Shown here one piece after another: positions 9,042 to 64,000 of a stretch of 64,000 nucleotides of DNA (position 1 is its first letter; every line of letters starts with the position of its first letter). A program made the position numbers and the translations under genes. The notes beneath the pieces were generated by a model. The model did no database searches, was not told the origin of the DNA, and saw only the letters and a program-made list of their open reading frames with translations. The stretch covers positions 1,302,001-1,366,000 of the forward strand of contig CDLV01000012.1 of assembly GCA_001244265.2 (NCBI GenBank). Direction: 5' to 3'. This DNA is from Microbotryum violaceum. Its lineage: Eukaryota.

Positions 9042-10782
9042 ATGACGCTCGTGGTCAGGATACGATCTGGAACTTGCTCTCCACTGGTTCGGACGCTGTC
9101 GTGGACATGTCGTCACCCCATCCAAGGCAGATCCTACGCGACGGACAAGGTGAGCGAGCAACCATCATTCATTCCCCCCACCTCCACATCCCCGCTGACC
9201 TGCAGTCACTCCATCCCCAGCCAACCCATCTCCACGTCTCAGGAAAAGATCACCCTACGGACAACTGGACGAACGTCACACCCACGATTCTGTCCAAAGT
9301 GGACCGCAACCTGCACCTCGTGCCCAACCATCCCCTCTCAATCTTACGCCAAAAGATCGAAGCTCACTTTAGCTCTCTCAAACCCGTCAACACCTTGTCC
9401 CCGATCGTCTCGGTCCAACAAAACTTTGACGACCTCGGTTTCCCCCTCGATCATCCCGGTCGGTCGCTGACGGACTCGTACTACCTCAACAAGGAAACCA
9501 TGTTGCGGACCCATACCTCGGCACACGAGGTCGAACTTTTTCGAAAAGGGTTGCAGAGGTTCCTGCTCACCGCGGACGTGTACAGGAGGGACGAAATTGA
9601 TCGATCGCATTACCCCGTCTTTCATCAAGTTGAAGGGTGCAACATCCTAACGTCCAGGGACGAGTTGCCCCGCTTGGAGAAGGAGAATGAAGCGATGCGA
9701 CAACACCTCGCTTCCTCTAATATCGTCATCGTTGATCCCACCAAAGAGGATACACCCTCGAACCCGAAACAGGCCGAGCACACGCTCGACGAAGCACGCA
9801 TCATGTCCGAGCACTTGAAGAACTCGCTCAACTCGTTGGTTCTGTCCTTGTTTGGCGGGCTGAGAAAGGGTGGGGAGGAGGAACCGTTGCAAGTGAGGTG
9901 GATCGAGGCGACGTTCCCTTGGACCGCACCGAGTTATGAGGTCGAGGTTCTGTACGATGGCAAATGGTTGGAGATTCTCGGGTGTGGTGTCGTCCGACAG
10001 CAGGCTTTGGATCGATCGGGTCAGTTGCAGGATCGGAACTGGCATTCAGGGGCTTCGCTGTCCTCATTCGCTCATCCACTATGGCTTTGCTCGCTCTTCT
10101 TCCCCGGTCAGGCGTGCTCGAGAAGCTCGGTTGGGCGTTTGGCCTCGGTCTCGAACGTATCGCCATGGTGCTTTTCTCTATTCCAGACATCCGTCTGTTT
10201 TGGACGCAAGACGAGCGCTTCCTCTCCCAATTCGTAAACGGCCGCATCACGACCTTCAAACCCTACTCCAAGTATCCGGAATGTTACAAGGATTTCTCCT
10301 TTTGGATCCCTAAGCAGACCGAGGGGAAGAGTGAAGAAGGGATCAAGGCCTGGCATGAGAATGATTTTTGTGAGATTGTTAGGGAAGTTGCGGGAGATTG
10401 GGTCGAAGGGGTACAATCGGTGAGTTTTTTTCTAGCTTCTCGAGGGGATGACTCTGGTACAGCTCCTGTAAGGGCTGTCATTTTGTTGATGACTGCTTTT
10501 TTCGCACTTTCTCTTATTAGATCGACGAGTTCGTGCATCCCAAGACGGGGAGAAGGAGCGTGTGCTATCGGTTGAACTACCGCTCGATGGATAGGTGAGT
10601 CGCGTGAGAGAAAGGAGTTCAACTTGATTTGCTATAGACGAAAGCCCAGAAAGTGATGAGTCACCCTGACCCCAAATTCACTGTCTTCAAAACAAAGGTC
10701 CCTCTCGAACGAGGAGGTGAACGAGCTTCAAAGCAAGGTCGTGGAAAAGGTCGTGAGGGAGATGGGCATCGAGGTGCGGTAG
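9042..10782 (+). CDS. MSF1: Mitochondrial phenylalanyl-tRNA synthetase (multi-exon)
   Basis: Arg/Ser-rich presequence, then HPGRSLTDSYY, LRTHTSAHE, DVYRRDEIDRSHYPVFHQVEG, WLEILGCG, GWAFGLGLERIAM and an FDX-ACB tail ending MGIEVR*. Confidence 0.95.
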
Positions 10783-19485: not shown

Positions 19486-21555
19486 AGGACCCCCGAAAGC
19501 CCAGCCGGAGGCGCTTTTTTTTTTTTTTTTGACATTTTGAGGACCCAAAATCCTGAAAACCGTCGAGGCGCATTGCAAAAAATTGACATTTTGGGACGAA
19601 ACACGCGTTTCGCCCCCGAGGCGCATGTCCAGATTTTGACATTTTCCCGTGAGTCGGCCCAATTTTGGCCTACCCTGAGCAACCTTCGGCATGAGTTTGG
19701 GCCCGTTCGCCTTCGCTTCGAGACGCGTTTCGCGATGCTCGCGCTTGAACAAGTCACTTAGTACTAGCTATCTTCGGTAATCACTTGAGTTAAGTGGCTG
19801 TGAGGGATTAGGCCGATTCGATATTGAAGGGGCGCAGGTTCTGTTCCGCTTCACTTCGGTCCGAGATTGGAGCATAGCACGACAACATCATCCCATGCAG
19901 GCCTTGAACGATGCCTTCGATTGATCATTGCCACTCACCAACATGAACATGACGATCGCCGAGCTCCTCGCCTTCGATGTCGCTCCCGCCGACGCGTCTC
20001 TTCACATCGAGTTGTCCAAAGACGAGCACACCCAGTACTCGACCTTATCATCTACTCGATGCCGTTGAGAAGGCAAACAGCTTCTCACGACCAATCGTGC
20101 GTCTACCAAGCTCAACTATCGAAATTTTGGTCTAAGCTCACGCGTGTTCGGTTCTACACAGCCCACACACTTGAAAGTTCCGCCTCAAGTTGTCGATGCT
20201 CGCGATACCAATTTCTCGCTGAACTGGCCAACCTGAATGCCCATCAAGCTGCTCATAAGCGTAGCCACCTGAAGCTGTTCTACTCAAGGGAGGCCGATGA
20301 AATCGAGCGACCCAACTCGCGGAGAGGCAGGCGTAGGGGTTAGCAATACAGAGGAAGGACGCAGTGCAGCACATTCATGCGTTACAAAAGGGTTGGTACA
20401 GTCCATGGGACCATCTCGCTGCGAAGACATGGCGGGCACGACAAGGAGCTTTCGCTGGACTAAAGGTGACCAGATGGACCGAGCGCTCACAACACACGAG
20501 GATCCAGAAGAATGTCTATACTGAGGATGGCCGCATTCAAGTGAGTTGTCGCTGAATTTAGGAGCGAAGGCAACTGGATCTAATGTTTGGAGAAACAAGC
20601 AGACGGAGCACTAGCACAACGCTATCCTCATTTTGGATCGCTTGACGGCGGAGCTGTAACCACTACCACAACATCGGAGATTGGATCTCTGGTCTGCTTT
20701 GGCCTCAAGCGTGGCATGCATTCAATCAGCTGCGATCAAACTGCCTATGGAGAAGAAGTGCTGTTCATTGGAATTGGTACGATGCCTTGAATGGCAGTTG
20801 AGCTGTGAAGTTCTCGTTTGACACAAGTCTTGTGTCCTACAGTGCGATACATCTACAGCAAAGTGACAACAAACCACTGCAACCAAGACACGCTCGCCTC
20901 GTTGGTTTTACTCTCAAATGTCGTCGTACAGGAGCTTCGCCTCCTCAAGAAAACATGCTATTCCACACACCTCATTGATGGCACTATGCCGTTCCGCATG
21001 ATTGATGGTCGACAGGTCATCGAGTCATTAGGCCCGTCAACGACTACATATCGTTCAACCACAGACCTTACCTCATGTTACCCGGACGAGCGCCTAATCA
21101 GCACGAGCGCACATGCCGAGCAAAGGTTTGCCGCCCTTCGGAGCGTGCCCGGCCTGCGAGATGCCGCCGGCAGAACCTCTACAAGTTGCACAAATGCCAC
21201 CGCGGAAACAAGGAGCTCAACTTCAGCAAAAAGGAAGTCTGACAACGAAGCAGCGAGCCAGCCAGCAAAGCAAGGAAGGCTTGTTTGAAGCGTGGAGCCA
21301 CGCGCAACACCAGCCGAAGCGACGCGCGCCGCAAGCCACTTTCGATAGGCCGCCGCTCGCCCGCAAACGCTCGGAACACGTTTTCGAGGACGTTTGAGCG
21401 ATTTTTGGAGCATGTAGAACACATTTTGATAATATTTCCGAGGCGCATGCGAAATTTTGACATTTTGGGGCCAAAATAGGGTAAAAAACTTTGACAAAAA
21501 GGCCAAAAAAGGGCGTTTTTCCGCATGCGCCTGTGGCTGGGCTTTCGGGGGTCCT
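19486..21555. mobile_element. Non-autonomous or decayed TIR DNA transposon with 8-bp TSD (hAT-like by TSD length only)
   Basis: Perfect 21-bp TIR AGGACCCCCGAAAGCCCAGCC (27 of 29 when extended). TSD AGGACGGG at 19478-19485 and 21556-21563. Repeated subterminal motifs and no intact transposase. Confidence 0.9.
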
Positions 21556-38554: not shown

Positions 38555-38978
38555 GTTTTGCGTAGGTAGAAAAAAAGAAACTCCCTCCGTCAGCGTTTCC
38601 CCCCTCCTCGCCAACATGCGCATTTCCCTTCCGAATCGGGGCCAAGGACACTCCAATTTCAAATTGAATTTGGCGGATGTTGCGATTGGTGAAGACTCCG
38701 AAACTGGCTTGCATAAGAAAGCGCTCCTGAATCATAATGTTCGAGACGAGTCCGACCGAGGGATTTGGTGCTTTCAACACTGCAGTGAGGCATTTTTGGT
38801 AACGGCTTGGTGTGAATATGGCGCACTGTGGTCCACACACACGCCGGTGTGGTGATTAGTGTTTCTCGAGTGCAGTGATGGGGTCCGGCAAAAAACAAGC
38901 CAGGCGCTTTTAAGATTTCTCTTTCGCGGGTCGACTGAACCTGAACAGAGAAAGCACCAGGATCGACAAGAGTAAAAA

Positions 38979-39050
38979 AGACTTCTGCGGGGGTCGAACC
39001 CGCGATCTTTGGATTCGAAGTCCAACGCCGTGCCGCTTGGCCAAGAAGTC
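38979..39050 (-). tRNA. tRNA-Arg(UCG), intronless
   Basis: GACTTCT/AGAAGTC acceptor stem, TGGCCAAGCGG A box, TTGGA-CTTCGAA-TCCAA anticodon arm, GCGGG-TTCGACC-CCCGC T arm and a T-run terminator. Confidence 0.95.
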
Positions 39051-39145
39051 TGAACGTCATAACCACTTTTCTATGAGATCGGCGCCGTTCCATGGAAAGA
39101 ACGCACAGCATGCGCAATAGACTTTAATGCAAAGATTTAAACACT

Positions 39146-41769
39146 TTTGCCGATGACGTTGTCGTCGCCGTCGCGGGCTTGGGGTCACTCAACTTGCTCG
39201 ATGACCTGGCGCTCGACTGGAGGCATGCAACGAATGGCCGGCTCAACACGGACAAGACGGTCGTCCTACCGATCGGACGCCGCTGGGACCCGGGCAACGC
39301 CCGCTCGTCGTCAAGGCCGCAGGCGAGTCGCTCGAGTGGATCGGCCTCCCCTTCGACCCGAGCGGCGACACCGAACTCGCCTACGCGAATCTCATCGAAC
39401 GCCTCGAGGCGACGCTGGAAGGGGTTCAGCATCGCTGGCTCACACACCACACCCGTGCCTTTTACGTCAATCGGTACGCCATCCCCAAGATCCTGCACTT
39501 CCTTGCAGCCGACATCCCGCCGCCCGAAGTCGTCAAGAAGCTCGATGACATGCTCGTCGATTTCGTCCGTGGGGGCAAGGGCAGGACCAGCTACGGCAGA
39601 GATATCGTGTTCACAGCCAAGCTCAAGGGGGACTCGGGGTGATCAGGATGCAGGACGTCGTGGACGCGGTTGCGGCACGGATCTGGGACGTTCTTCTCGG
39701 CGGTTCGGGCGCGATCTGGCAAGGACTTGCGCGCGTGGCACTCCAGCGAGCTCAGTCCGACCTCGACCTGGCCACCGATCTCTGGCCACATCCATCCACT
39801 CCCATCCCCAGCGACCTCCATCCCCGATGGCGAGCAGCATTGGGGTTCCGAAACAGCAAGACGCGCAGGTCAACCCGAGGACCTTGACCACCGCGAACCT
39901 GCTCGCGCTTCCCACCTTGCTCGGCAGCCTCCACACCCCCATCAGAGGGAGACAGACCATCGACGCGGTTCATATACCTGACTACCTTCGTCTCCAGGGC
40001 TACCCGAAGGTGGCGGATCTCTACCGGCGCGAGTTGTATGCGGGTGGGGGTTTCACCTTTGGACGCCGCCGGCGGATGTGCTCGGCGACAACAGCGAGTA
40101 CGATCGACGCGGGCTCCCGCAGCGACTGGCAATCGCGGCCTGGTACCGGTTTACTGTCGATCGACACAAGAACACGCCCTTGGCGGTGGCGGTGGCGGCA
40201 GGACGGCTCAACGTGCCTCCCGGATCGGCACCAGCGCACCGCTCGAGGCGATTCTCCCCAAGCCCGTGGCCCGCTTCGCAATGGAGTAGCACCTTCCGGA
40301 CCCGGTGCTTCCACAGCAGGCGAGCCAGTACAAGCTGCTGAACATGGCTCGACCGTACACCATCCGTCGCATCCGCCGGGTCCTGAACGCGAAGGCCTTT
40401 ACCAACACGCTCGGGCTTAAGGGACCACCGCAGCCGGACGACCTCAGGAGCTTTTGGAAGGCGGCCAACTCGAAGGCACTGACGGCGAGGGAGAGGGAAG
40501 TTTGGTTCAAGCTGATTCTCCGCTTCACCCCGACGCGTAAGCTGCAACACCAACAGAATCACGACACTTCTCCGCGTGCCTCGTCTGCGAAGCGCCGGTG
40601 GACGACACCGACCACTACTTTTTCGACTGCGTTGACTCTGGGAACGTTTGGATAGCGGCAAGGAGCGTGCTCTGCGACGCACTGGGGCTCGACACGATCG
40701 ACAACACGCATTACACGGCTGTTCAACGCATGTTCGGACTTCCGAAGCTCAAGGCCAGTCTACGCGATCAAGAAGGAGCGGGGAGGACGATCGAAATATT
40801 CACCGGGCTGGTCTTGGAGATGATCAGCAGCGGGAGGTGGGGGATGCAGAAGTGGGGGACGAAGATGGAGGGTGTTGTGAGGAGGAGGATCATCTTGGAG
40901 GAGAGGTTGAAGCTGAGGGCGGGAGGAGCTTGGGGAGGAGAGGGCAGTAGAGGCTGGGTTCGACTTTCCCCCACCACCACCACACACACACACCAAATTC
41001 TCGTGACATCATTTTCTCCTACTGTACACTAAATAGATCGCTTTCATCTTTCATTTGTTACAGGTTCACCGTTGCGGATCATGGACCATCTCGCGATTTG
41101 GCGTCGACTCGGTGTGGCTCGCGCTCTTCGGCTTCGGGGTTCTGAGTCAAGGGAGGGATCAGCGGACACAGGCAGAAAGTCGGCTTTGAGGGGCCAGGGA
41201 CTGCCGATGGGGGAGGTTTTGAGGGACCTTCACCGCGTCTTGTTGTGACTGAGCAGAGACTTGGAGCGTCGAGGGTCGTGGTGGTTGCGCATCGGCTTCG
41301 GGGTTCTGAGTCAAGGGAGGGATCAGCGGACACAGGCAGAAAGTCGGCTTTGAGGGGCCAGGGACTGCCGATGGGGGAGGTTTTGAGGGACCTTCACCGC
41401 GTCTTGTTGTGACTGAGCAGAGACTTGGAGCGTCGAGGGTCGTGGTGGTTGCGCAGTCGTGCTCTTGTCTTCGTCTCGACCGAGTGGGAAGTGGCTGTGG
41501 GGTGGGCCTTCTGTCGTTAGTACATTTCTTTTCTTTCTTTTTTCTCTTCATCTCTCTTTCTCTCTCTCATTAGTCTCCTGGGGGGAGCAACCGCTTGGCT
41601 AGGGCATTTGAATCCGAATCTCGGATTGGTGGACTTGGCTCGTTTCTCGCACTTTTGCGGGCGGTTTGTGTTATCATCGTAGTCTTCCATCTAGTTTTTC
41701 CGTAGGCCAAAACAGGGGGAACAGGAACTGGGGGCAATATGATGAACGTTTTCTACAAAAAAAAAAAAA
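39146..41769 (+). mobile_element. LINE unit 1 (family A), 5'-truncated at the RT FADD motif, frameshifted, poly(A)-tailed
   Basis: FADD...[17 protein letters not shown] and C-terminal HYFFDC zinc motif. Homologous to 59215-61687. A 164-bp tandem duplication lies in the 3' UTR. Confidence 0.92.
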
Positions 41770-41965
41770 TGGGGGGGAGCAACCGCTTGGCTAGGGCATT
41801 TGAATCCGAATCTCGGATTGGTGGACTTGGCTCGTTTCTCGCACTTTTGCGGGCGGTTTGTGTTATCATCGTAGTCTTCCATCTAGTTTTTTCCGTAGGC
41901 CAAATAGGGGGAACATGAATTGGGGGCAATATGATGAACAGTTTCTACAAAAAAAAAAAAAAAAA
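41770..41965 (+). mobile_element. LINE unit 2: family A 3'-UTR fragment plus poly(A)
   Basis: Near copy of 41580-41769. Confidence 0.9.
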
Positions 41966-42058
41966 CCCTCGTGCATACTGGGTAGCATCTCCTTTAGTTC
42001 CGTAGGGGGTTTTCTCGTCTTGCAAATTAGCGATGAGTTTCATACAAAAAAAAAAAAA
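41966..42058 (+). mobile_element. LINE unit 3: family B 3'-terminal fragment plus poly(A)
   Basis: Matches 45097-45182. Confidence 0.9.
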
Positions 42059-45000
42059 CCCCTCGGGATTGGCGACTCGCGACGAACGGACGTCTAAACA
42101 CCGACAAAACTGTGGTGATGCCATTGGGCGCGACGTTGTGGGATCGCGCGGACTTGTCCAAACTGTCGTTCGTGGCACCGGACGAGTCTCTTCCCTGGAT
42201 CGGTCTCCAGTTTGCGCCTGACGGCAACAACAGGCTGGGATTCCATGATCTTGAGCGAAGGGTTGATCGAGTGATTCTATCGGTGCGCGACCGATGGATG
42301 ACGCACCATACCCGGGCTTTCTATCTTAACCGCTACGGCATCTCCAAGGTGCTGCACTCTCTCTCCGCCGACATCCCGCCATCCGACGTGATCAAGTCGA
42401 TCGAGCGCAAGCTTGCTGACTTTGTGAAGGGAGGCCCGCGGCGCAGCGACTACAAGCAATCGGTCGTCTTCACGGCACGGGCGCGAGGCGGTCTCAGCGT
42501 CGTGAGCATCCAGGATGTGGTGGATTCAGTCTCGGTACGGATCTGGGATGTGCTGGCCGGCGGGTCAACTGCGATTTGGGGCGATCTGGCTCGGAGTTCC
42601 ATCCGGCGAGCGCTTCCGACCTTTGACTTTGCTGCGGATCTGTGGACGTGGAGGAACGCCGACGCACCCCGGGAGCTACATCCCCGCTGGCGAGCGGTGC
42701 TCTCGGTCGCTGAACGCTACCCTGCCGTCGTCGATCCTGCCAAACTTTCGGTCTCCAATCTTCTTTCTCTTTCCCCCTCCAACCGGGTCTGCATGACTCG
42801 CGGGCGTTCTCGGAGCAGGATAAGCGTTTGGCGAAGCATTTCAGTTTCGAACGCACCATCGCTGACATCTATGCTCGAGCTCAATACCCCGCAGCTCCAA
42901 CGGTGCCCTGGACCCCTGAGAAGCATCCCCAAGGCGACGGCTCGGAGCTGTCCAACCTTTGGCAATGGAAGCGCGATCAAGTCCAGGCGTGGATCCAGGT
43001 CGCAGGCGATCGCTTCATCCCGCCGCTTCCGCCTCCTGTTCCCGTCCTCGCACGTCGACCACCCGTCATTCGTGTCGTTGGAGCACCTGGAGCCCGGCCC
43101 GGCGGTCCCCTCGAGCACATCTTGCCCAGAGCGACTCCGGTCGGCATGCCTGATCAAAGACTTCCCCTCCCCTCCGCCCCCTTGCTTGCTAATCAGTGGA
43201 GAATGTTGAGCTTGGACAGACCCTACACCATTGCGCGACTTCGACGCGTCATCAACCATCGACGTTTCGACGACACACAACGCCCTGGATCACTCGCCAC
43301 ACCCAAAGAAAGGCGACTCTTCTGGGGTGGTTCCACACCGGGCCCGCCACGGCCCGCGAGCGCGAGGTGCACTTCAAGCTGGCGTACCACTTCACGCCAA
43401 CGCGGAAGCGCCAGTTTGTGCAGCGGCATGGCGACTCGGCCTGCTGCCTTGTGCAGGCATGCAGCCTGGCAGGGGTGGAGGATGACTTTACTCACTTTTG
43501 GCATGATTGCCCTGACTCTTCTCAATTTTGGCAAGCAGCTAGGTCCATTATCTGCGACGCGCTGGGGTCGTGTCGATCCTCGACCTCGACTACACGGCAC
43601 TTCAGATCGAGCACGGCCTCCCTCGACTGCGCGCTCGCCTTCCGACGTCGAAAAAGCGTCCAATCCGCGCCTTCATTGCGCTGGCGCTCGACACTCTCAG
43701 CAACCGACGCTGGGATCTCCATCGCCACGCCAGAGCGATGTCGAGCATGGACAAGGAGATGGCGGGACTGAAGGAGAGGTTGGAGCTCAGATTGGCGCGA
43801 TGAAGTAGATGTCCCTCCCTCCCTATCCAAGCAAAAACCAAACCCCAAAAAATCACAAGTCCCTTTTCCCTCCTTCTCAATCTCCAAAATGTCTCCCAAA
43901 CACGCCAGAATACTGAACCTGTTTTTTCTCGCTCTTTTTGCCATTCCTCCTCATAGGCTTCCGTACTCCCAGGAGCCTCGGGTTCTTTGCGCCGGCGGGC
44001 ATTGTCGCCCTTGGTTCGAGCTTCTGCCACATCACGATGACACACAGCGAAAACGGATCCCCTTGGCCCTCTCCTGGACTATACCGTGAGTTTTCCACTC
44101 CTCTCAAGGGCCGGGTCTGTCTTCTCTTTCGGTCGAGCGACCCGTGATCTCCTGTTCAAGGCCGGCACAAACTGCCTGCGTGGCTCGCCTCTCCTTGCTT
44201 TGCTGCTCGCTCGGAGTCGCGGCCCCGCGGCGGGTGACTCGGGTACCGAACCGCCATACACATCCACACTCGAGCGAGGTCCCACCCAATGACATCACCG
44301 TCGTGGGCCTCATGCTCCTTCTTTCCCCAGTATCTGCGGTGATTGGGAACCACCTGCACGTACAACGGGACTCGAGTGTGCGTTCCGAGATTGGGAGTAC
44401 GCCGCAGGGAAGCGAGGCCCCTGCGGAAGGTATACCCCGCCCTTGTCTCCAGCCGCGCGCCGGTGTTGACGGCCACCCGCCCGCGCTGCACCCGACCGAG
44501 GCGTGTCCAATGGACTGTCACATGCTCCGTGACTTTCCCGGAAATCTCTGGATTGTGTGTTTTTGTGCGAAGTAGGCCTGTTTCGCAGTTGCAGTCATTG
44601 GAATGGGGGTGATCTGGGGTCGTGCGGTCGCGAGGGGGGCCGACTTTGGTAACCGAAAAGGGGTTTGGAATCCGCGGTGGAGATCCAGCGCAGACGGGTA
44701 CAAGGGGTATGTGATTGCTGCGGTCGCAGGGGTTACATTCCCCTTTGGACCACGTGAATCATTTGGATTGAGCGGGATGTTTGTGCCATCGGAGGCCTTG
44801 TTCGACGCGTCTCAAAGAATTAAGGGGCTTCAAGGAGTATGGCGGTCTCAGGGGGGGCTGAAGTCAAAAGATCGAAGAAGGTTCAACTGTACGACTATAA
44901 TCGGATTCGCCTGTACAACACAGTACCATCACCAACGACTCATCCATCTTTTCCCGATTCCTTGTGTATAATCTTCAACCTTCCTTTCATTCGTCTCTGG

Positions 45001-45182
45001 GAGGGAGCAACCGTGGGTGGGGGGACTTGAACTCGGATGTATCGGGTTGGTCTGTTCTGCTAGTTACAACGCATCAAGCGGCGGTTGTGGTCATCATCGT
45101 GCATGCTGGGTAGCATCTCCTTTAGTTCCGTAGGGGGTTTTCTCGTCTTGCAAATTAGCGATGAGTTTCATACAAAAAAAAA
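42059..45182 (+). mobile_element. LINE unit 4 (family B), 5'-truncated, ORF2 C-terminal half, ~1.4-kb 3' UTR, poly(A)
   Basis: NTDKTVVMPLG, HHTRAFYLNRYGISK, ARGGLSV, THFWHDC. Coding ends at ~43803. Confidence 0.9.
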
Positions 45183-45240
45183 CCCCCGAACCGCCATACA
45201 CATCCACACTCGAGCGAGGTCCCACCCAATGACATCACCG

Positions 45241-50105
<4,865 letters not shown>

Positions 50106-51003
50106 CACCGTCGTGGGCCTCATGCTCCTTCTTTCCCCAGTATCTGCGGTGATTGGGAACCACCTGCACGTACAACGGGACTCGAGTGTGCGTTCCGAGA
50201 TTGGGAGTACGCCGCAGGGAAGCGAGGCCCCTGCGGAAGGTATACCCCGCCCTTGTCTCCAGCCGCGCGCCGGTGTTGACGGCCACCCGCCCGCGCTGCA
50301 CCCGACCGAGGCGTGTCCAATGGACTGTCACATGCTCCGTGACTTTCCCCGGAAATCTCTGGATTGTGTGTTTTTGTGCGAAGTAGGCCTGTTTCGCAGT
50401 TGCAGTCATTGGAATGGGGGTGATCTGGGGTCGTGCGGTCGCGAGGGGGGGCCGACTTTGGTAACCGAAAAGGGGTTTGGAATCCGCGGTGGAGATCCAG
50501 CGCAGACGGGTACAAGGGGTATGTGATTGCTGCGGTCGCAGGGGGTTACATTCCCCCTTTGGACCACGTGAATCATTTGGATTGAGCGGGATGTTTGTGC
50601 CATCGGAGGCCTTGTTCGACGCGTCTCAAAGAATTAAGGGCCTCAAGGAGTATGGCAGTCTCAGGGGGGTCTGAAGTCAAAAGATCGAAGAAGGTTCAAC
50701 TGTACAACTATGATCGGATTCACCTGTACAACACATGTACCACCACCAACATTTCTTCCATCGTTTCCAGATTCCCCGTGTATTATCTTCAATCTTCCTT
50801 TCATTCGTCTCTGGGAGGGAGCAACCGTGGGTGGGGGGACTTGAACTCGGATGTATCGGGTTGGTCTGTTCTGCTAGTTACAACGCATCGAGCGGCGGTT
50901 GTGGTCATCAACGTGCATACTGGGCAACATCACCTTTAGTTCCGTAGGGGGGTTTCTCGTCTTGCAAATTAGCGATGAGTTTCATACAAAAAAAAAAAAA
51001 AAA

Positions 51004-54000
51004 GTGCAGGGCATTGCTTCACGGCACGCACAGTCGCTCTTCACGCCGGACCCAGCTCGTGGCGACCCGACGAACCCACGTCGGTCCCTGCTCGACCCTA
51101 TTCGCGCGGCGAAATGCTACGATGACGACCGCTCGGACCCTACGTTCGGTCGTCGGCTGCCTCGTCAAGCGAGAGTGGCGCTTGACGAGCCCTTCACCCT
51201 CCTCGAGGTTGAAGCGGCGTTGAAGAAGACGGATTCGGGGCGATCACCGGGGCCCTCGGGCATTCCGTACGAGCTCTTCAAGGCGCTGCCAACCTACTTT
51301 GCTCCCAAGCTGTTGGATTTGTTCAACTCGATTTGGGAGGGGGGTAAAATGACGGCGTCCTTGGCAGAGGGGCTGGTGCGGCTTTTGCCCAAGAACAAAC
51401 CGGGGGCCAATCTGAAATCACTGGGGCATATCGACCGATCACACTGCGCGAGACGACCTACAAGGTCCTCAGCAAGGTCTTGGTGGCGCGACTCAATGGG
51501 GTGCTCGGCGAGCTTTTGCCGCCGGCGCAACACGGGTTCATGCCATCAAGACGTTCAGCAGACGCGGGAAGTCATCTCACTCTCCTTCTCGAATAACTCA
51601 AGTCGCTAGGCACTGAAGTTTTCCCCGAGGGCGCCCTCTTGTCCTTGGATCAGCAGAGCGCGTACGATCGGGTCGATCACGCATGGATCTTCGACGTCTT
51701 CGAGGCCTTTGGCTTTGGTGAGCGTTTCATTTCCCTGCTGCGCGCTCTGTACGATCCCGAGACTCTTGGGGTGCGCTACCTCATCAATGGGTTCCCCACG
51801 GAGTTGGTGCGGTTGCTGTGTGGTCTCGGTCAGGGTGATCCCCTCTCGTGCCCGGTTTGGAACATCACGTTCCAGCCCTTCCTCGACGCCCTCGTTCGGC
51901 GCGGGATCGCGCTCGACCTGCAGAAGGTGTGGCCAGGGGGGCCGCGTGCGCAGCTTACGCATCTGGCGTTTGCCGACGATGCTGTGGCGGTGGTGGAGTC
52001 ACCGGCGGCATTGTCGAAGCTGGAAACGCTGTCGCAGACGTGGTACAAGGCAACCAACGGGAAGACCAACACGGACAAGACGCTGGTGCTACCACTCGGA
52101 CCGAACTGGCTTCGGGACGAGACTGCGCAGGCGCTGCCATCGGTGCAGGAGGGGGAGAGCTTCAAGTGGTGCGGCTATGCCTTCTTTCGCCATGGTGACT
52201 CGAAGCTGTTTTGGACCCATGTTCTTGACAGGATCAAGGCCAAGACCCGCGCCGCTCGAGACCGGACACTTTCGCCGAGTGGGAAGGTCTTCTATGCCAA
52301 CGCTCACATCATCTCGACGGTCCTCCACGTGCTGTCCTTCGACATACCGCCTCATGGTTCATTAAGGCGGCGGAGACAGCACTTACGGATTTTGTCTGGG
52401 GAGGAGCAGGGCGAAATACCGTCGCTCGCGATTTCGTGTTCCAGGCTCGGGAGGACGGTGGCTTGGGCTTGATTTCGATCGGCGACATCGTTCATTCGGT
52501 GGCGCTTCGATTTTGGGATGCTGTGGCGGGCTCGAACGAGGCGATCTGGGCGCCTCTAGCTCGCGAGAGCTGGAGGTCCCTCGTCGCTGCGACCCGCGAT
52601 TTCAGTCCGTGGGGGTTCTTCAGCAGCAGGGCTCGGGTCGAGAAGCTGTATCGCGACTCGACGCGCTGGGGGTCAGTCGTTGCAGCGGCCAGGGTCACAG
52701 TTCCAACCATCAAGTCCGAACTCCTTACGCTCCCCGAATTGCTCTCGCTTCCGCCTCGCCTCCCTTCACTCTATGCTGAAGGTGCCAAGCACGCATATGA
52801 CGATGCGGACGCAGTGGCGAAGTTTGCGCAGATCGCGGACCTGTACTGGAGGGACGAAGGAAAGGGCTGGGCTCTGGTTGGTCATCGACGCGGGTTCTGG
52901 CAGCACTCTAAGGAACCCGCCCTACAGCACGAGCACGTGTGGTCGCGCGTGGGTCAGTTGCTCAAGGCGAAAGCCTTGCTGCCCAAGACCGCGTTGCGAC
53001 CTGCTCGGATACCTCTCAAGGAGGCTCCCCGTCCTCGGTGCTTCAACTTCTTTGGGCTCATTCGACCTTTTACGATTCGCAAGCTTCGTCGGCTTGTGAA
53101 CGTGGTTCGGTTCCCAGGGAGGGAGGATCGTGTCAAGCGTTTCCGTGATGGGTCTTCTCAGAGCGATAGGAAGCGCTTCTGGAGATGGCTTTATGACCGG
53201 TTCGCGTCTGCTGTGGAGCAGGACACCCACTGGCGGCTCATGTACGACGTGACGCCGACGCGCAAGAGGCAGCATACTCAGGGTCATGCCTCTTCGCCGA
53301 CGTGTCTGTTCTGCGGCAAAGATGCAGCGGTCATCGAGACGGTGTCGCACTACTTCTTCGAGTGCGCGTACTCGACCAGCTTCTGGGGTGGGGTGCTTCG
53401 TATTCTGTTCGACAAGCTGGGCATCGAGGATACCGACGTCGATCCGTCGACGTTCACTCCGGAGCAGCTGACTATGGGGCTCCCCTTTTGCGGGGTCGTG
53501 GGAGAACGACCTCGAGATGGATGTGGGTTCGGCTGGCCTGCGCGATCGGCTTCCAGCGGCTGCACCTGCTCCCCTGGCGCGTTCATCAGCGGTTCGAGCT
53601 GGACAACGTCGTGGCCCCTCCCTCGCTCCCCAGTGCACTCAGAGCGTTCGAGCGAGATTTTCTCTCTCGAGCGGGTTTTGTGCCTGGGGCTCGAGATTGG
53701 GAGGTGTGATGACCGAGTTAAGTCCTTCCTTCCCATTTTCCTCCCCTCCTTTCCTCCCTTCTTTTTCGGAGGTCGACTCCTCTTTTAGAAGCTGACTGTC
53801 TTGAAACTTGTTGCGCAGTGGAAGGCTGCGCACCTCTCCCTCTCTCTCTCTACTTTGCGCAGTAGCGGTTTTTTTGTTCTTGGATGAGTCGGCAAGCCAG
53901 GTCGATTGTCTTTGCGTTGGAGGCTTTGTGAAGTTTTTCCCTCTCCTTTCCCCCCTTTTTCCCTTCCCTTCCTCTTCTCGTTCCTGTTGCTCGGTTGTTG

Positions 54001-54676
54001 ACTACGCTTCAGCCACTTCTCCTTTTACTCCTAAGCCGTGTGTTGGGTTCCGTTGAATGGTTCGTTCGTTCGCGTTGGTCAAGATCTACGGCATGGCTCG
54101 GGAAGGAAGGTCGCTCGTTTCTGGTCAATATCCTCGCGTCAAGGCGAGGCTCGTTTCGTTGTACTGGATCGCTTTTATCTCGGCCCCGACGGCTCAACAG
54201 CCAGCACTCGAGATTTAGCCAAGGGAGGACATCAGGCGCTGTCGGGGTGACGAGTAGCTGGGGCTTGGCTGCGGCCTGTTAGTCCCTGGGGACCTCTACC
54301 TCCGGCTTCGACCCCCTCCCTTGGCCCCTCGGGTGTGTTCCCCTCCTCTCTGTCTTAGTATTCCTGGTTCTCCGTATCCCCAGTTGTGACTTTCTGTATA
54401 CTCTCCCCCTTCTTTCTCTAGGCGCTCTTGCCTGGTTTTCGAGTATCTTTGCTCCCGCTCTTGGGACGTGAAGCGGCAGCAGTACTCACCGCCCGTTGGA
54501 GTCCGCGTTAGGTGCTCGGCGGGTTTTGATCTGCGCAGCGCTCTTTGCGCGCAGGGGTTTGACTTTCACCCAACTGCTTGCCGTCGTTGCTTTATAACCT
54601 CCTTTAGCTCTTTTTGTAGCGGTCCCAGCCAACCCGAAGGATTGCAATTTATGAGCCCCAGTAAAAAAAATAAAAA

Positions 54677-54677
<1 letters not shown>
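51004..54677 (+). mobile_element. LINE unit 6 (family C), 5'-truncated, full RT domain, frameshifted, A-rich tail
   Basis: RSPGPSG, LDQQSAYDRVDH, GLGQGDPLS, LAFADD, EDGGLGL, CLFC...HYFFEC. About 1 kb of 3' UTR. Confidence 0.92.
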
Positions 54678-61038
<6,361 letters not shown>

Positions 61039-61695
61039 AGGCTGGGTTCGACTTTCCCCCACCACCACCACACACACACACCAAATTCCCGTGACATTAT
61101 TTTCTCCTACTGTACACTAAATAGATCGCTTTCATCTTTCATTTGTTACAGGTTCACCGTTGCGGATCATGGACCATCTCGCGATTTGGCGTCGACTCGG
61201 TGTGGCTGGCGCTCTTCGGCTTCGGGGTTCTGAGTCAAGGGAGGGATCAGCGGACACAGGCAGAAAGTCGGCTTTGAGGGGCCAGGGACTGCCGATGGGG
61301 GAGGTTTTGAGGGACCTTCACCGCGTCTTGTTGTGACTGAGCAGAGACTTGGAGCGTCGAGGGTCGTGGTGGTTGCGCAGTCGTGCTCTTGTCTTCGTCT
61401 CGACCGAGTGGGAAGTGGCTGTGGGGTGGGCCTTCTGTCGTTAGTACATTTTTTTTTTCTTTTTCTCTTCGTCTCTCTTTCTCTCTCTCATTAGTCTCCT
61501 GGGGGGAGCAACCGCTTGGCTAGGGCATTTGAATCCGAATCTCGGATTGGTGGACTTGGCTCGTTTCTCGCACTTTTGCGGGCGGTTTGTGTTATCATCG
61601 TAGTCTTCCATCTAGTTTTTCCGTAGGCCAAAACAGGGGGAACAGGAACTGGGGGCAATATGATGAACGTTTTCTACAAAAAAAAAAGGGCGGCT

Positions 61696-61998
61696 AGCCG
61701 CGCGGTCGCCTCTCCTGTCTTTGTCTCGACCGAGTTGGGAAGTGGCGGCGGGGTGGGCCTCTTGTCGTTAGTTAGGTTTTCCTTTCTCTCTCTCATTCGT
61801 CTCCTGGGGGGGGGGGGGGGGGAGGAACCGCTTGGCTGGGGCACTTGAATTCGAAGTGTCGGATTGGTGGACTTGGCCCGTTTCTCGCATCTTGCGGGCG
61901 GTTGTGTTATCATCGTCGATTTCCATCTAGTTTTTCCGTAGGTTAATCAGGGGGAACAGGGATTGGGGCAATATTATGAACAGTTTCTACAAAAAAAA
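61696..61998 (+). mobile_element. LINE unit 8: diverged family-A-related 3'-UTR fragment plus poly(A)
   Basis: Similar to 61385-61687 and flanked by GGCGGCT at 61689-61695 and 61999-62005. Confidence 0.88.
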
Positions 61999-62829
61999 GG
62001 CGGCTTCCCTAACCCTCAAGCTGCACGCCCTCGGCTCGAGCCGCTGCGGTGCTATGATACCCGGCGCTCACAAATACGAACGGTAATATTTTTGTCCGGG
62101 CTCCAGTCTTGATGCTGTCTATCTCGAGAATCCGAGCTTATTTGGGGGCTGCTAGGAGAACCGGGTGCAGCCGTCCTCCACAGACGCTGGGCAGCATCAA
62201 GTTTGGTAATGCACGTAAAATCTCGGTCAGTGAACTCGCAATACTCAGCATGAGAGACAAGAGGCACGCACCGAGAACCTCCGGTCAGTGACCTGGCGGA
62301 AGCCTAGAGAGGTTTTAGGCGCGCTTCAACGTGATGGTTGAAAAGTCTTGCTCACGAGTCATTGATTCTGTACACTTGCAATACAAATAAGCCTTACACC
62401 GTGAGTTACATGTCTCTCTTGTTAGAGTCATTTTGAGTCTTTCTCAGATGCAATAACTTCTACAACAGCTTGTCGAGCTGATTAGAGTCGACCTCTCGGC
62501 TACAGCACGGATCCCTTTACGAGTGATTGCGTGGTCAGTTTTATGTCTGGTAAAGGAGAAAGTAGTGGCTACCTCCTTTAGTGTCGACGGCCAGAGGCGC
62601 GTGACGCTGTGGTCAAATACCAAGTATTCCACTTGAGGGAGCGCTTGCGCAGCTAGAAGTCCGCTTGCAGCAGGACTAGTCCGAAAACCCTAACCGTCCG
62701 CATAGCCCTGTAGCTCAAAAAGGTGACAACCGGTCGATCAACGATGAAGACTACCATTTTTGGCAGCGAGGAATGGACAAAATGCATACTGAATTGCAGC
62801 GAGGAAAGAGAGACCCAGAAAAGGAGGAC

Positions 62830-64000
62830 CTATCGCCTCCCTCCTCGGCCACCACCGCCACCACCACCTCGGCCACCTCGCCCGCCACTGAACCCACCGC
62901 TGCGGCTTCCTCCTCCTCCCCCACTCGAAGCTCCACCCCGTCCCTTCTTGCCAGGCTGCGTCGACCGACGGACCCGCTTCTCCTTCTCAACGCGTTCCTT
63001 ACGAATCTCGTCCGCGGTCTTCAGCCCTCCAGGCGCTCCACCCAGGCGACCGGGTTTGCCGACCGTCCGGCCCTTGCGTTTGTCGGTCGCGCGGTCGGTC
63101 TTCGGTACCCCAGCCTTGTGGCGATACTTCTTCTCGCCACCGGGGGCAATCGTCGTCTTGCCCTGTAGCTCCGCCTCCCCGACCTTGGGGACCGAAATCC
63201 GCTGCTTGCGCTTCCATTCGTCAAAGACGCCGGACTTGAAGGACGCCGGCAACTTTTGGCCCGATTCGGAGCGCACGAGCTTCTTGTTGTCCGCACCGAC
63301 GCCGTCGCCGCGAACAAATTTCTTGGTTCGTCGATCCCAGCGGAGTGCCGAGGCGCGTTGTAACGTCGCGTCGGCGGGGGTCCCTTCGGTATCGCCGCGT
63401 CCCGACACATCGTACTGCGACTGCGCGGCCTGGGCAACGAACGACTCGCCGTTCGTCAATGAGTAGCCCCGCTCGGTGTCGGCCCCTTCTTGCTCGTACC
63501 CGAGGTAGAAATTGGGGTCACGGTAGGTCGCACCCGCCCCTCTCTGAGGCTTGCGTTTCCGCGGTGCACCAAAGACTTGCGCCAACTCTTCTTCGTCGGC
63601 ATCATCCATCTCGACCGCGACCCGTTTCGCAGGGTGTGCTCCACCCTCCTCCTCCTCCTCCTCCGCGGGCATCTCGACTCGATCCTCTTCATCCCGCTCT
63701 TCCCCATCTTCCTCGGGCAAGGCCCGCGCTCGCTCAGATTTGAGCATCGCCTTCCGACGATCTTTCATCAGTTGCGAAGCGACCGTCTTGCCTCTCGTGC
63801 CGACCTCAAAGACCGTCTCATTTGGTCGGAACAGGTTGACTTTGGCCAAGAGTTCGGCGCGACTCTGCTCGTCCTTGACGTTCGTCCCGGAGATGGTGAG
63901 GTAGTCTCCAAAGATGGGGTGCACCGAGGCATGTTCACCCGAGGTTGTCGCCAGACCGTAGCCTTTGCGTTCCAGGTCCTTGGCGCGGCGGTACGACTCG
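62830..64000 (-). CDS. DBP10: DEAD-box RNA helicase DBP10, C-terminal part (5' end outside the window)
   Basis: FRPNETVFEVG, YRDPNFYL, LRWDRRTKKFV...KKLVRSESGQKLPASFKSGVFDEWK (DBP10CT), LKTADEIRKER and an RGG tail. Confidence 0.93.
   Translation of the reverse strand, partial: ESYRRAKDLERKGYGLATTSGEHASVHPIFGDYLTISGTNVKDEQSRAELLAKVNLFRPNETVFEVGTRGKTVASQLMKDRRKAMLKSERARALPEEDGEERDEEDRVEMPAEEEEEEGGAHPAKRVAVEMDDADEEELAQVFGAPRKRKPQRGAGATYRDPNFYLGYEQEGADTERGYSLTNGESFVAQAAQSQYDVSGRGDTEGTPADATLQRASALRWDRRTKKFVRGDGVGADNKKLVRSESGQKLPASFKSGVFDEWKRKQRISVPKVGEAELQGKTTIAPGGEKKYRHKAGVPKTDRATDKRKGRTVGKPGRLGGAPGGLKTADEIRKERVEKEKRVRRSTQPGKKGRGGASSGGGGGSRSGGFSGGRGGRGGGGGGGRGGRR

Follow-up and report, generated by a model that had tools for sequence, protein, structure and literature searches.

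A 64,000-nucleotide stretch of the genome of the anther-smut fungus Microbotryum violaceum, here called the window (contig CDLV01000012.1; C10:1302001-1366000 of a 33.2-Mb, 20-contig assembly), contains a train of eight long interspersed nuclear element (LINE) units, all L1-like and all on the + strand, running from 39146 to 61998. We consider it very probable that this array was built by independent, target-primed insertions of LINEs that home upstream of type-2 promoters of RNA polymerase III (Pol III). The target would be an interval about 50 to 95 bp upstream of a tRNA gene, or of a tRNA-like unit with A and B boxes, and the element would lie with its 5' end toward the gene. Because promoter and spacer stay intact, each insertion would regenerate the target, and the next element would land a few bases from the previous one, displacing older units outward. 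Target-primed reverse transcription yields truncations, tails and short duplications; in three of the four cases with a known target, one A ahead of the nick is enough. A Copia element present in the train would be a later nested passenger.

A preliminary description of the window had recorded the common orientation, the ends of the eight A-tails (Table 1; the tail ending at 54677 reads A8-T-A6) and the presence of three families, all of which we confirm. Compared with full-length copies elsewhere in the genome, the units sort into three main groups, A, B and C, and the A group splits further into A2 (units 1 and 2), subfamily A (unit 7) and an old stub (unit 8). Its broader proposal, that several divergent L1-like families share a self-renewing safe haven at internal chromosomal sites, also holds. 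What changes is the target, which it had placed in the poly(A) tails of the LINEs themselves; the Copia element inside unit 5 and the tRNA-Arg(TCG) gene near the head had been missed.

LINE trains at Pol III promoters

Tail patterns found 124 A/A2, 62 B and 118 C ends in the genome, and none in reversed controls. Cluster counts use 267 listed tails, the lists for two of the patterns holding 100 of 124 and 100 of 118 ends, and about 0.96 Mb of the 33.2 Mb was read directly as DNA. The listed tails fall into 137 clusters, 52 of which have at least two units. A catalogue of arrayed against solitary copies, suggested in the preliminary description, thus places the majority in arrays (182 of the 267 tails are in multi-unit clusters).

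The tRNA list comes from an Rfam search that gave at least 49 matches (63 of 950 candidates scored), and the upstream DNA was read for all 49. A LINE head or tail stub, counting as a start the body, a microsatellite head or an A-stub, lies 49 to 93 bp upstream of 36 of them (median 67), always pointing away from the gene; two of these 36 loci are inverted duplicates of another locus. On the downstream side no LINE match was found within 110 bp of any of the 49. When seven tRNA-like repeat copies and one AT-rich match are excluded, 34 of 41 tRNA matches have a LINE upstream. The 13 misses comprise five tRNA-like repeat copies, the AT-rich match, two loci where the LINE is more distant (116 and 145 bp, behind a stub or a tRNA-like piece) and five plain misses.

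The same geometry appears from the side of the clusters. By coordinates only, 45 of 137 clusters have an opposite-strand anchor within 8 kb on the head side; the three alternative geometries yield 3 to 4 each, and random placement 1.8 (maximum 8 in 2000). Among 30 multi-unit clusters that had no listed tRNA when fetched, 21 proved to have one, 50 to 95 bp from the head. In all, a promoter of a tRNA gene or tRNA-like unit stands at the head of 48 of the 52 multi-unit clusters, two of them by contiguity with anchored arrays and 46 directly (39 at tRNA genes and seven at tRNA-like units, two of the seven recognized by eye and an A-box scan). Twenty-two single copies are anchored too, which brings the anchored tails to at least 194 of the 267 listed.

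Could such a picture arise with no specific tether, either through entry into DNA that is open and poor in nucleosomes ahead of Pol III genes, or through wide insertion followed by survival there? Accessibility and selection of this kind would agree with the existence of unanchored single copies, and both the spread of distances (49 to 95 bp) and the CACGTG and GGGGCGG motifs of the spacers fit the boundary of a footprint. However, a single orientation is not readily explained in this way, the downstream side is unused, and the site is re-used within a few bases (L037, L080). We therefore regard this explanation as unlikely.

The spacer motifs were counted at tRNA loci: CACGTG occurs in 9 of 56 spacers, mostly 48 to 69 bp upstream, and GGGGCGG in 7 of 56, mostly 60 to 80 bp upstream. 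LINE heads often begin just past them, and by these raw counts they are perhaps host factor sites. We also noted two large inverted duplications (L031; L061 with L062) in which each arm carries a tRNA gene and a LINE train.

Anchors are not restricted to tRNA genes. An A/B-box pattern matched 77 places (2 in the control), of which 66 are within three multicopy tRNA-like repeats. At 10 of 12 such repeat sites, chosen for a tail within 8 kb and not for head distance, a LINE head lies 55 to 72 bp upstream, and some anchors retain only the A-box part of a long terminal repeat (LTR). Among 27 heads with no called tRNA, 11 have an opposite-strand A-box at 58 to 87 bp (background 1.9%). Repeat-site heads and A-box heads together show that the elements read promoter position, not target sequence or a functional tRNA. 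One of the A-box heads, L151, is on a metagenome contig and belongs to a full-length relative, 77 to 85% identical, from a related organism. It was the only informative locus of 80 in a metagenome scan: ARAGORN called no tRNA in any of them, and the other 79 are only 22 to 38% identical and mostly short, so that they say nothing about distant relatives. An Rfam search of 14 loci whose heads lacked a called tRNA gave no match, and thus no 5S, U6 or SRP anchor. A second A/B-box pattern performed at chance level (10 matches against 12 in the control) and was left unused.

Of the tRNA-like repeats, rep1 accounts for 31 pattern hits and the other two for 20 and 15. A full copy of rep1 at L148 (C1:1002950-1003949) is about 510 bp long and has a 5-bp duplication. 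Two 207-bp terminal repeats (99% identical), each holding a tRNA-like unit, enclose a short inner part; the ends of the copy are not the usual TG...CA, and its PBS-like (primer-binding-site-like) and purine tracts were judged by eye. The repeat also occurs at L149. At L041 (C11:736000-745999, 645-720) a rep1 tRNA-like unit without its upstream flank stands 65 bp upstream of a tRNA-Phe gene, in LINE orientation and directly preceding an A2 fragment; it is possibly a Pol III transcript mobilized by LINE machinery. At L103 (C14:721400-731399, about 9060-9457) the head of a three-unit array has no tRNA or Rfam match and adjoins a TATA-like stretch, which makes it a candidate for an unannotated Pol III unit or a rearranged site.

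Order of insertion

The place at which trains grow separates homing to promoters from the rule proposed in the preliminary description, a Zorro3-like targeting of poly(A) tails in which the founder's site is arbitrary and subsequent LINEs use existing A-tails for nicking and priming, so that trains propagate themselves. If chains were extended at tails, the first unit should be the oldest and should follow an A-run, and a tRNA gene at the head would go unexplained. We found the opposite age gradient. We compared the tRNA-proximal unit with the last visible unit, each by its divergence from its nearest copies, in 34 arrays that show at least two 3' ends, after leaving out two duplicate loci and one non-anchor. 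The proximal unit is the less diverged in 27 arrays and the more diverged in 3, with 4 ties; the median divergences are 0.2% for proximal and 1.7% for last units (Wilcoxon p=1.3e-4), bearing in mind that the 10-kb stretches used sometimes fall short of the true array end. Of 55 anchored arrays, only 3 have an A-run ahead of their first piece; 16 open with an A-stub and are ambiguous in this respect.

The junctions carry traces of target DNA. Duplications of at least 6 nt, which are not made of A, flank 15 of 99 units (null 4.5, maximum 11 of 300). At L080, further copies of the repeat reveal the empty flank: the tails restart at its positions 55 and 63, and nine letters of this flank separate two units. 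Successive tails share at least five letters in 19 of 70 pairs (null 2.7), at an offset in 13 of them. In the window, the preliminary description had seen no host DNA between units, yet six of seven internal junctions hold 2 to 9 letters absent from the reference copy of the next unit. Unit 8 did not insert into a tail, since it is flanked by a separate 7-bp target duplication of non-LINE DNA (GGCGGCT; 61689-61695 and 61999-62005). Finally, three further samples, which carry two species labels, have a tRNA-bearing contig that matches the window only to 39141; run X19 does not reach the tRNA gene and spacer and speaks for neither side. The age gradient, the duplications, the target letters of L080, the offsets and the break at 39141 together favour growth of the trains at the tRNA end.

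Tail targeting is not without support: units adjoin tails with only 0 to 9 letters between them, series of tiny tail stubs occur at some heads (L047, L066, L106), of the four tails with a known empty flank three restart directly behind one target A, and Zorro3 does integrate at poly(A) (PMC3956500). It leaves the Pol III promoter at 48 of 52 heads unexplained, however, and the order of ages, the rarity of A-runs before first pieces, the duplication of unit 8 and the target DNA between units of L080 all run counter to it. As the primary rule it is largely refuted, and we hold it to be very improbable, although short A-stubs inside the target interval may be re-used.

Several points weigh against homing upstream of Pol III promoters. 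Three of the 52 multi-unit clusters have no anchor and one is unclear, and the five plain misses are ordinary tRNA matches without a LINE. Among the 85 single copies, 63 are unanchored or unread (41 of the 85 are on C1 or C2); of 25 leftover singles retrieved from C3-C17, 15 could be followed to the head, and inspection by eye showed no anchor for 9 of the 15, one of them with a weak A-box match. Some unanchored singles are secondary duplicates, such as L123, which repeats the junction of L050. The 49 tRNA matches are a minimum, as are the listed tails. Duplications of at least 3 nt are not above chance (44 of 99; null 30.5, maximum 45). The six shared strings at offset 0 fit tail insertion as well, and several of the offsets are weak, lying in homopolymers or in pairs that compare stub with stub. 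The three contigs that depart at 39141 carry 32 to 96 further letters that do not fit unit 1, as judged from record lengths, the letters themselves not being displayed.

The window array and its elements

The features of the array are collected in Table 1. The preliminary description of a 23-kb LINE train is right as to the eight units, but 4865 of its 22853 bp are a Ty1/Copia element. Its statement that each following unit is 5'-truncated is right for others such as units 4 and 6 and wrong for unit 7, which is essentially full length.

Table 1. Features of the LINE array and its surroundings, in window coordinates
Feature	Position	Strand	Remarks
tRNA-Arg(TCG) gene, anchor of the array, 5' end toward array head	38979-39050	-	Rfam RF00005, 64 bits; ARAGORN 38978-39051
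Spacer from tRNA +1 to first LINE base, 93-95 bp	39051-39145		2-nt microhomology at 39144-39145
Unit 1, 5'-truncated LINE, young subfamily A2	39146-41769	+	zf-RVT match
Unit 2, 196-bp A2 3' stub	41770-41965	+	96% to full-length A2 copy
Unit 3, family B 3' stub	41966-42058	+	6-bp flanking duplication CCCTCG
Unit 4, 5'-truncated family B LINE, short C-runs at flanks	42059-45182	+	98.5% to B copy L088
Unit 5, ~0.95-kb family B fragment, split by Copia	45183-51003	+	B matches 45186-45241 and 50098-50996
Ty1/Copia LTR retrotransposon inside unit 5	45241-50105	+	5-bp target duplication
Unit 6, 5'-truncated family C LINE	51004-54677	+	98.0% to full-length C copy L070; RVT_1 and zf-RVT
Unit 7, full-length subfamily A LINE, 7.0 kb	54678-61687	+	ORF1 and ORF2
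Unit 8, diverged A-group stub (from 61697)	61688-61998	+	7.3% from nearest copies
DBP10-like host gene, 3' part	62830-63999	-	PF08147 DBP10CT; ends ~830 bp past array

Unit 1 is 98.8% identical to the full-length A2 copy L062 and 0.0% diverged from its nearest copies, and we infer that it is the newest of the array; its 3' untranslated region has a 164-bp tandem duplication. Unit 8 is the oldest. The duplication flanking unit 3 takes in the opening letters of unit 4, its distal neighbour. In unit 7, open reading frame (ORF) 1 has a CCHC knuckle and an acidic tract, and ORF2 has the order endonuclease, reverse transcriptase, zinc finger; the frames are broken in the assembly. The Copia element, inserted 55 to 58 bp from the head of unit 5, has 376-bp LTRs differing at one site and a 1376-codon gag-pol frame (45615-49745). 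Copia elements are nested in further LINE trains (L046, L047, L050, L066, L105), which may reflect a preference like that of Ty1 or mere tolerance.

An assembly artefact, in which the train would be a repeat collapse or a mis-join, has a negligible probability in our judgement. Unit 1 does show single-base gaps in its G/C runs against contigs of each of the four runs compared, which suggests local errors, and no long read spanning the array was seen. Against this, the units differ in family, length and truncation point, their junctions carry target duplications, and dozens of other arrays have other compositions and identical geometry; a mis-join would neither fix the distance from head to tRNA nor order the units by age. 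The gaps in unit 1 are six, in 39291-40571, relative to contigs of the runs compared, and many of the frame breaks in these LINE copies may be assembly errors.

By their protein matches the window units classify as L1-like, APE-type non-LTR retrotransposons, because RVT_1 and zf-RVT are matched in them, the A2 copy L072 matches the APE endonuclease domain PF03372 (E 1.4e-9) together with RVT_1, and the best solved relative is human L1 ORF2p (E 5e-21; R2 follows with E 2e-13). PF03372 gave no score in the A, B and C frames scanned, although their N-termini align with each other. Hallmarks of the L1 group are present: an ORF1 with a zinc knuckle, a 3' poly(A), frequent 5' truncation, variable short target-site duplications and no LTR. 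The CCHC motif was found in the ORF1 of A2 and B and not in the C frame scanned. Among named proteins, those of Microbotryum species come closest (up to 98-99%), followed by Rhodotorula paludigena (39%), and the nearest named non-fungal matches are 24 to 27% identical, one of them labelled TX1.

Unit 7 is 81% identical to A2 over ORF2, and the stub of unit 8 stands at 78%. ORF2 stretches of different families are 34 to 61% identical (29% in one case). Aligned parts of ORF1 from A, A2 and B share 35 to 64% identity, and no match to C was obtained; the determinant of targeting may therefore sit in ORF2 or in a diverged ORF1. An atlas search with ORF1 had a top score of 0.90, to an unnamed cluster, and CCHC and RRM clusters were below 0.9; these are leads only. 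Full-length copies (L042, L072, L086, L089, L093) open with a microsatellite that differs between families and varies in length: (CACTT)n marks A2, (TCATCTT)n marks B and (CA)n marks C.

Elsewhere in the window, a Copia gag remnant (PF14223; 37166-38290, - strand), 0.7 kb downstream of the tRNA-Arg gene, terminates at a fragment resembling the tRNA-like repeat rep3. A 2.1-kb element with 20-bp terminal inverted repeats (19487-21554), related copies of which adjoin other arrays, is probably a non-autonomous DNA transposon. The telomere-like CCCTAACCCT directly past the array end was considered as a target and found to be unsupported.

Known systems and a possible mechanism

Head-to-tail arrays of non-LTR elements are formed by Cnl1 in Cryptococcus and Zepp in Chlorella, which are telomere-associated, self-inserting single families; the Microbotryum arrays, in contrast, are internal, multi-family and promoter-anchored.

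The closest parallel is TRE5-A/B/C of Dictyostelium discoideum, along with NLTR-B of Polysphondylium pallidum. Upstream of tRNA genes TRE5-A occurs in tandems, and loci with nothing but A and B boxes are among its targets (PMC5391098); its ORF1p binds TBP, Brf1 and Bdp1, and targeting needs the B box (PMC5911963, PMC5006619). Likewise, the Microbotryum elements use a narrow upstream interval with the 5' end toward the gene, accept A/B-box loci without tRNA function, and place the new copy between the gene and the older copy. They differ in their fungal host, in distance (49 to 95 bp, median 62 to 67, as against 44 to 54 bp typically and 31 to 98 bp in range for TRE5), in having four divergent lineages per site, trains of up to 20 to 50 kb and most tRNA matches occupied, and in the CCHC knuckle of ORF1. 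No dictyostelid protein was among 82 matches, a weak negative given that only long proteins and 8000 candidates were scored. By analogy, then, the trains would work like TRE5, which does not make them TRE5.

Zorro3 of Candida albicans is likewise a fungal L1-clade LINE with a zinc-knuckle ORF1, but it sits at poly(A) tracts, with poly(A) at both ends and no target-site duplication (PMC3956500). That arrangement is not what we found: most first units come after host DNA other than A, and some are flanked by 6- to 8-bp duplications not made of A. The upstream flanks of Pol III genes also serve Ty1/Ty3, Tj1, Tca8 and Tyl3/Tyl6 as a safe haven in compact fungal genomes (PMC5911963, Table 1); these are, however, LTR elements with an integrase and insert within 1 to 30 bp (Ty3 type) or about 1 kb (Ty1). 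In build, rep1 resembles the Helenus terminal-repeat retrotransposons in miniature (TRIM), which have two LTRs with tRNA-like A/B boxes, a primer-binding site and polypurine tract, a 5-bp target-site duplication and a length of 311 to 1263 bp (Kojima 2024, PMC10886601); in the Microbotryum genome rep1 acts as a decoy target. Section 3.2 of that paper reports no Helenus in Microbotryum.

In Table 1 of a 2018 review, the tRNA-gene-targeted non-LTR elements are all dictyostelid and the fungal cases are all LTR elements (PMC5911963). For one Microbotryum genome, 134 tRNAs and 392 LINE copies are given in passages that draw no link between them (PMC4469406), and the main text of PMC10502011 does not contain the whole word 'tRNA'. 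We found no paper on a tRNA-gene-targeted fungal LINE, most subscription papers, Repbase and the Microbotryum supplements being outside the scope of the search.

How might the position be read? Given that targeting occurs, the TRE5-A example makes it reasonably probable that an element protein would contact promoter-bound TFIIIB/TFIIIC and that the nick would be made just outside their footprint. We lean, by a smaller degree, toward a wider view in which homing guided by Pol III factors arose in Microbotryum LINEs independently of TRE5, was ancestral to lineages now 34 to 61% identical over aligned parts of ORF2, and has since reached most tRNA genes. Mobile tRNA-like LTR repeats would then have spread the landing pad, one class of element seeding havens for another, and Pol III promoters missing from the annotation could be recognized by their LINE heads.

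Homing to tRNA genes in a fungal L1-like group would add one more case of convergence to the use of Pol III genes as havens. Microbotryum is a cultivable genus with many genomes, in which the position specificity, without sequence specificity, of an APE-type LINE could be tested across three divergent families: the trains would record the order of insertion, and the decoy repeats would serve as a natural experiment on the signal that an element recognizes. A LINE protein with such homing to the upstream side of tRNA genes may also be of interest for safe-harbour gene insertion.

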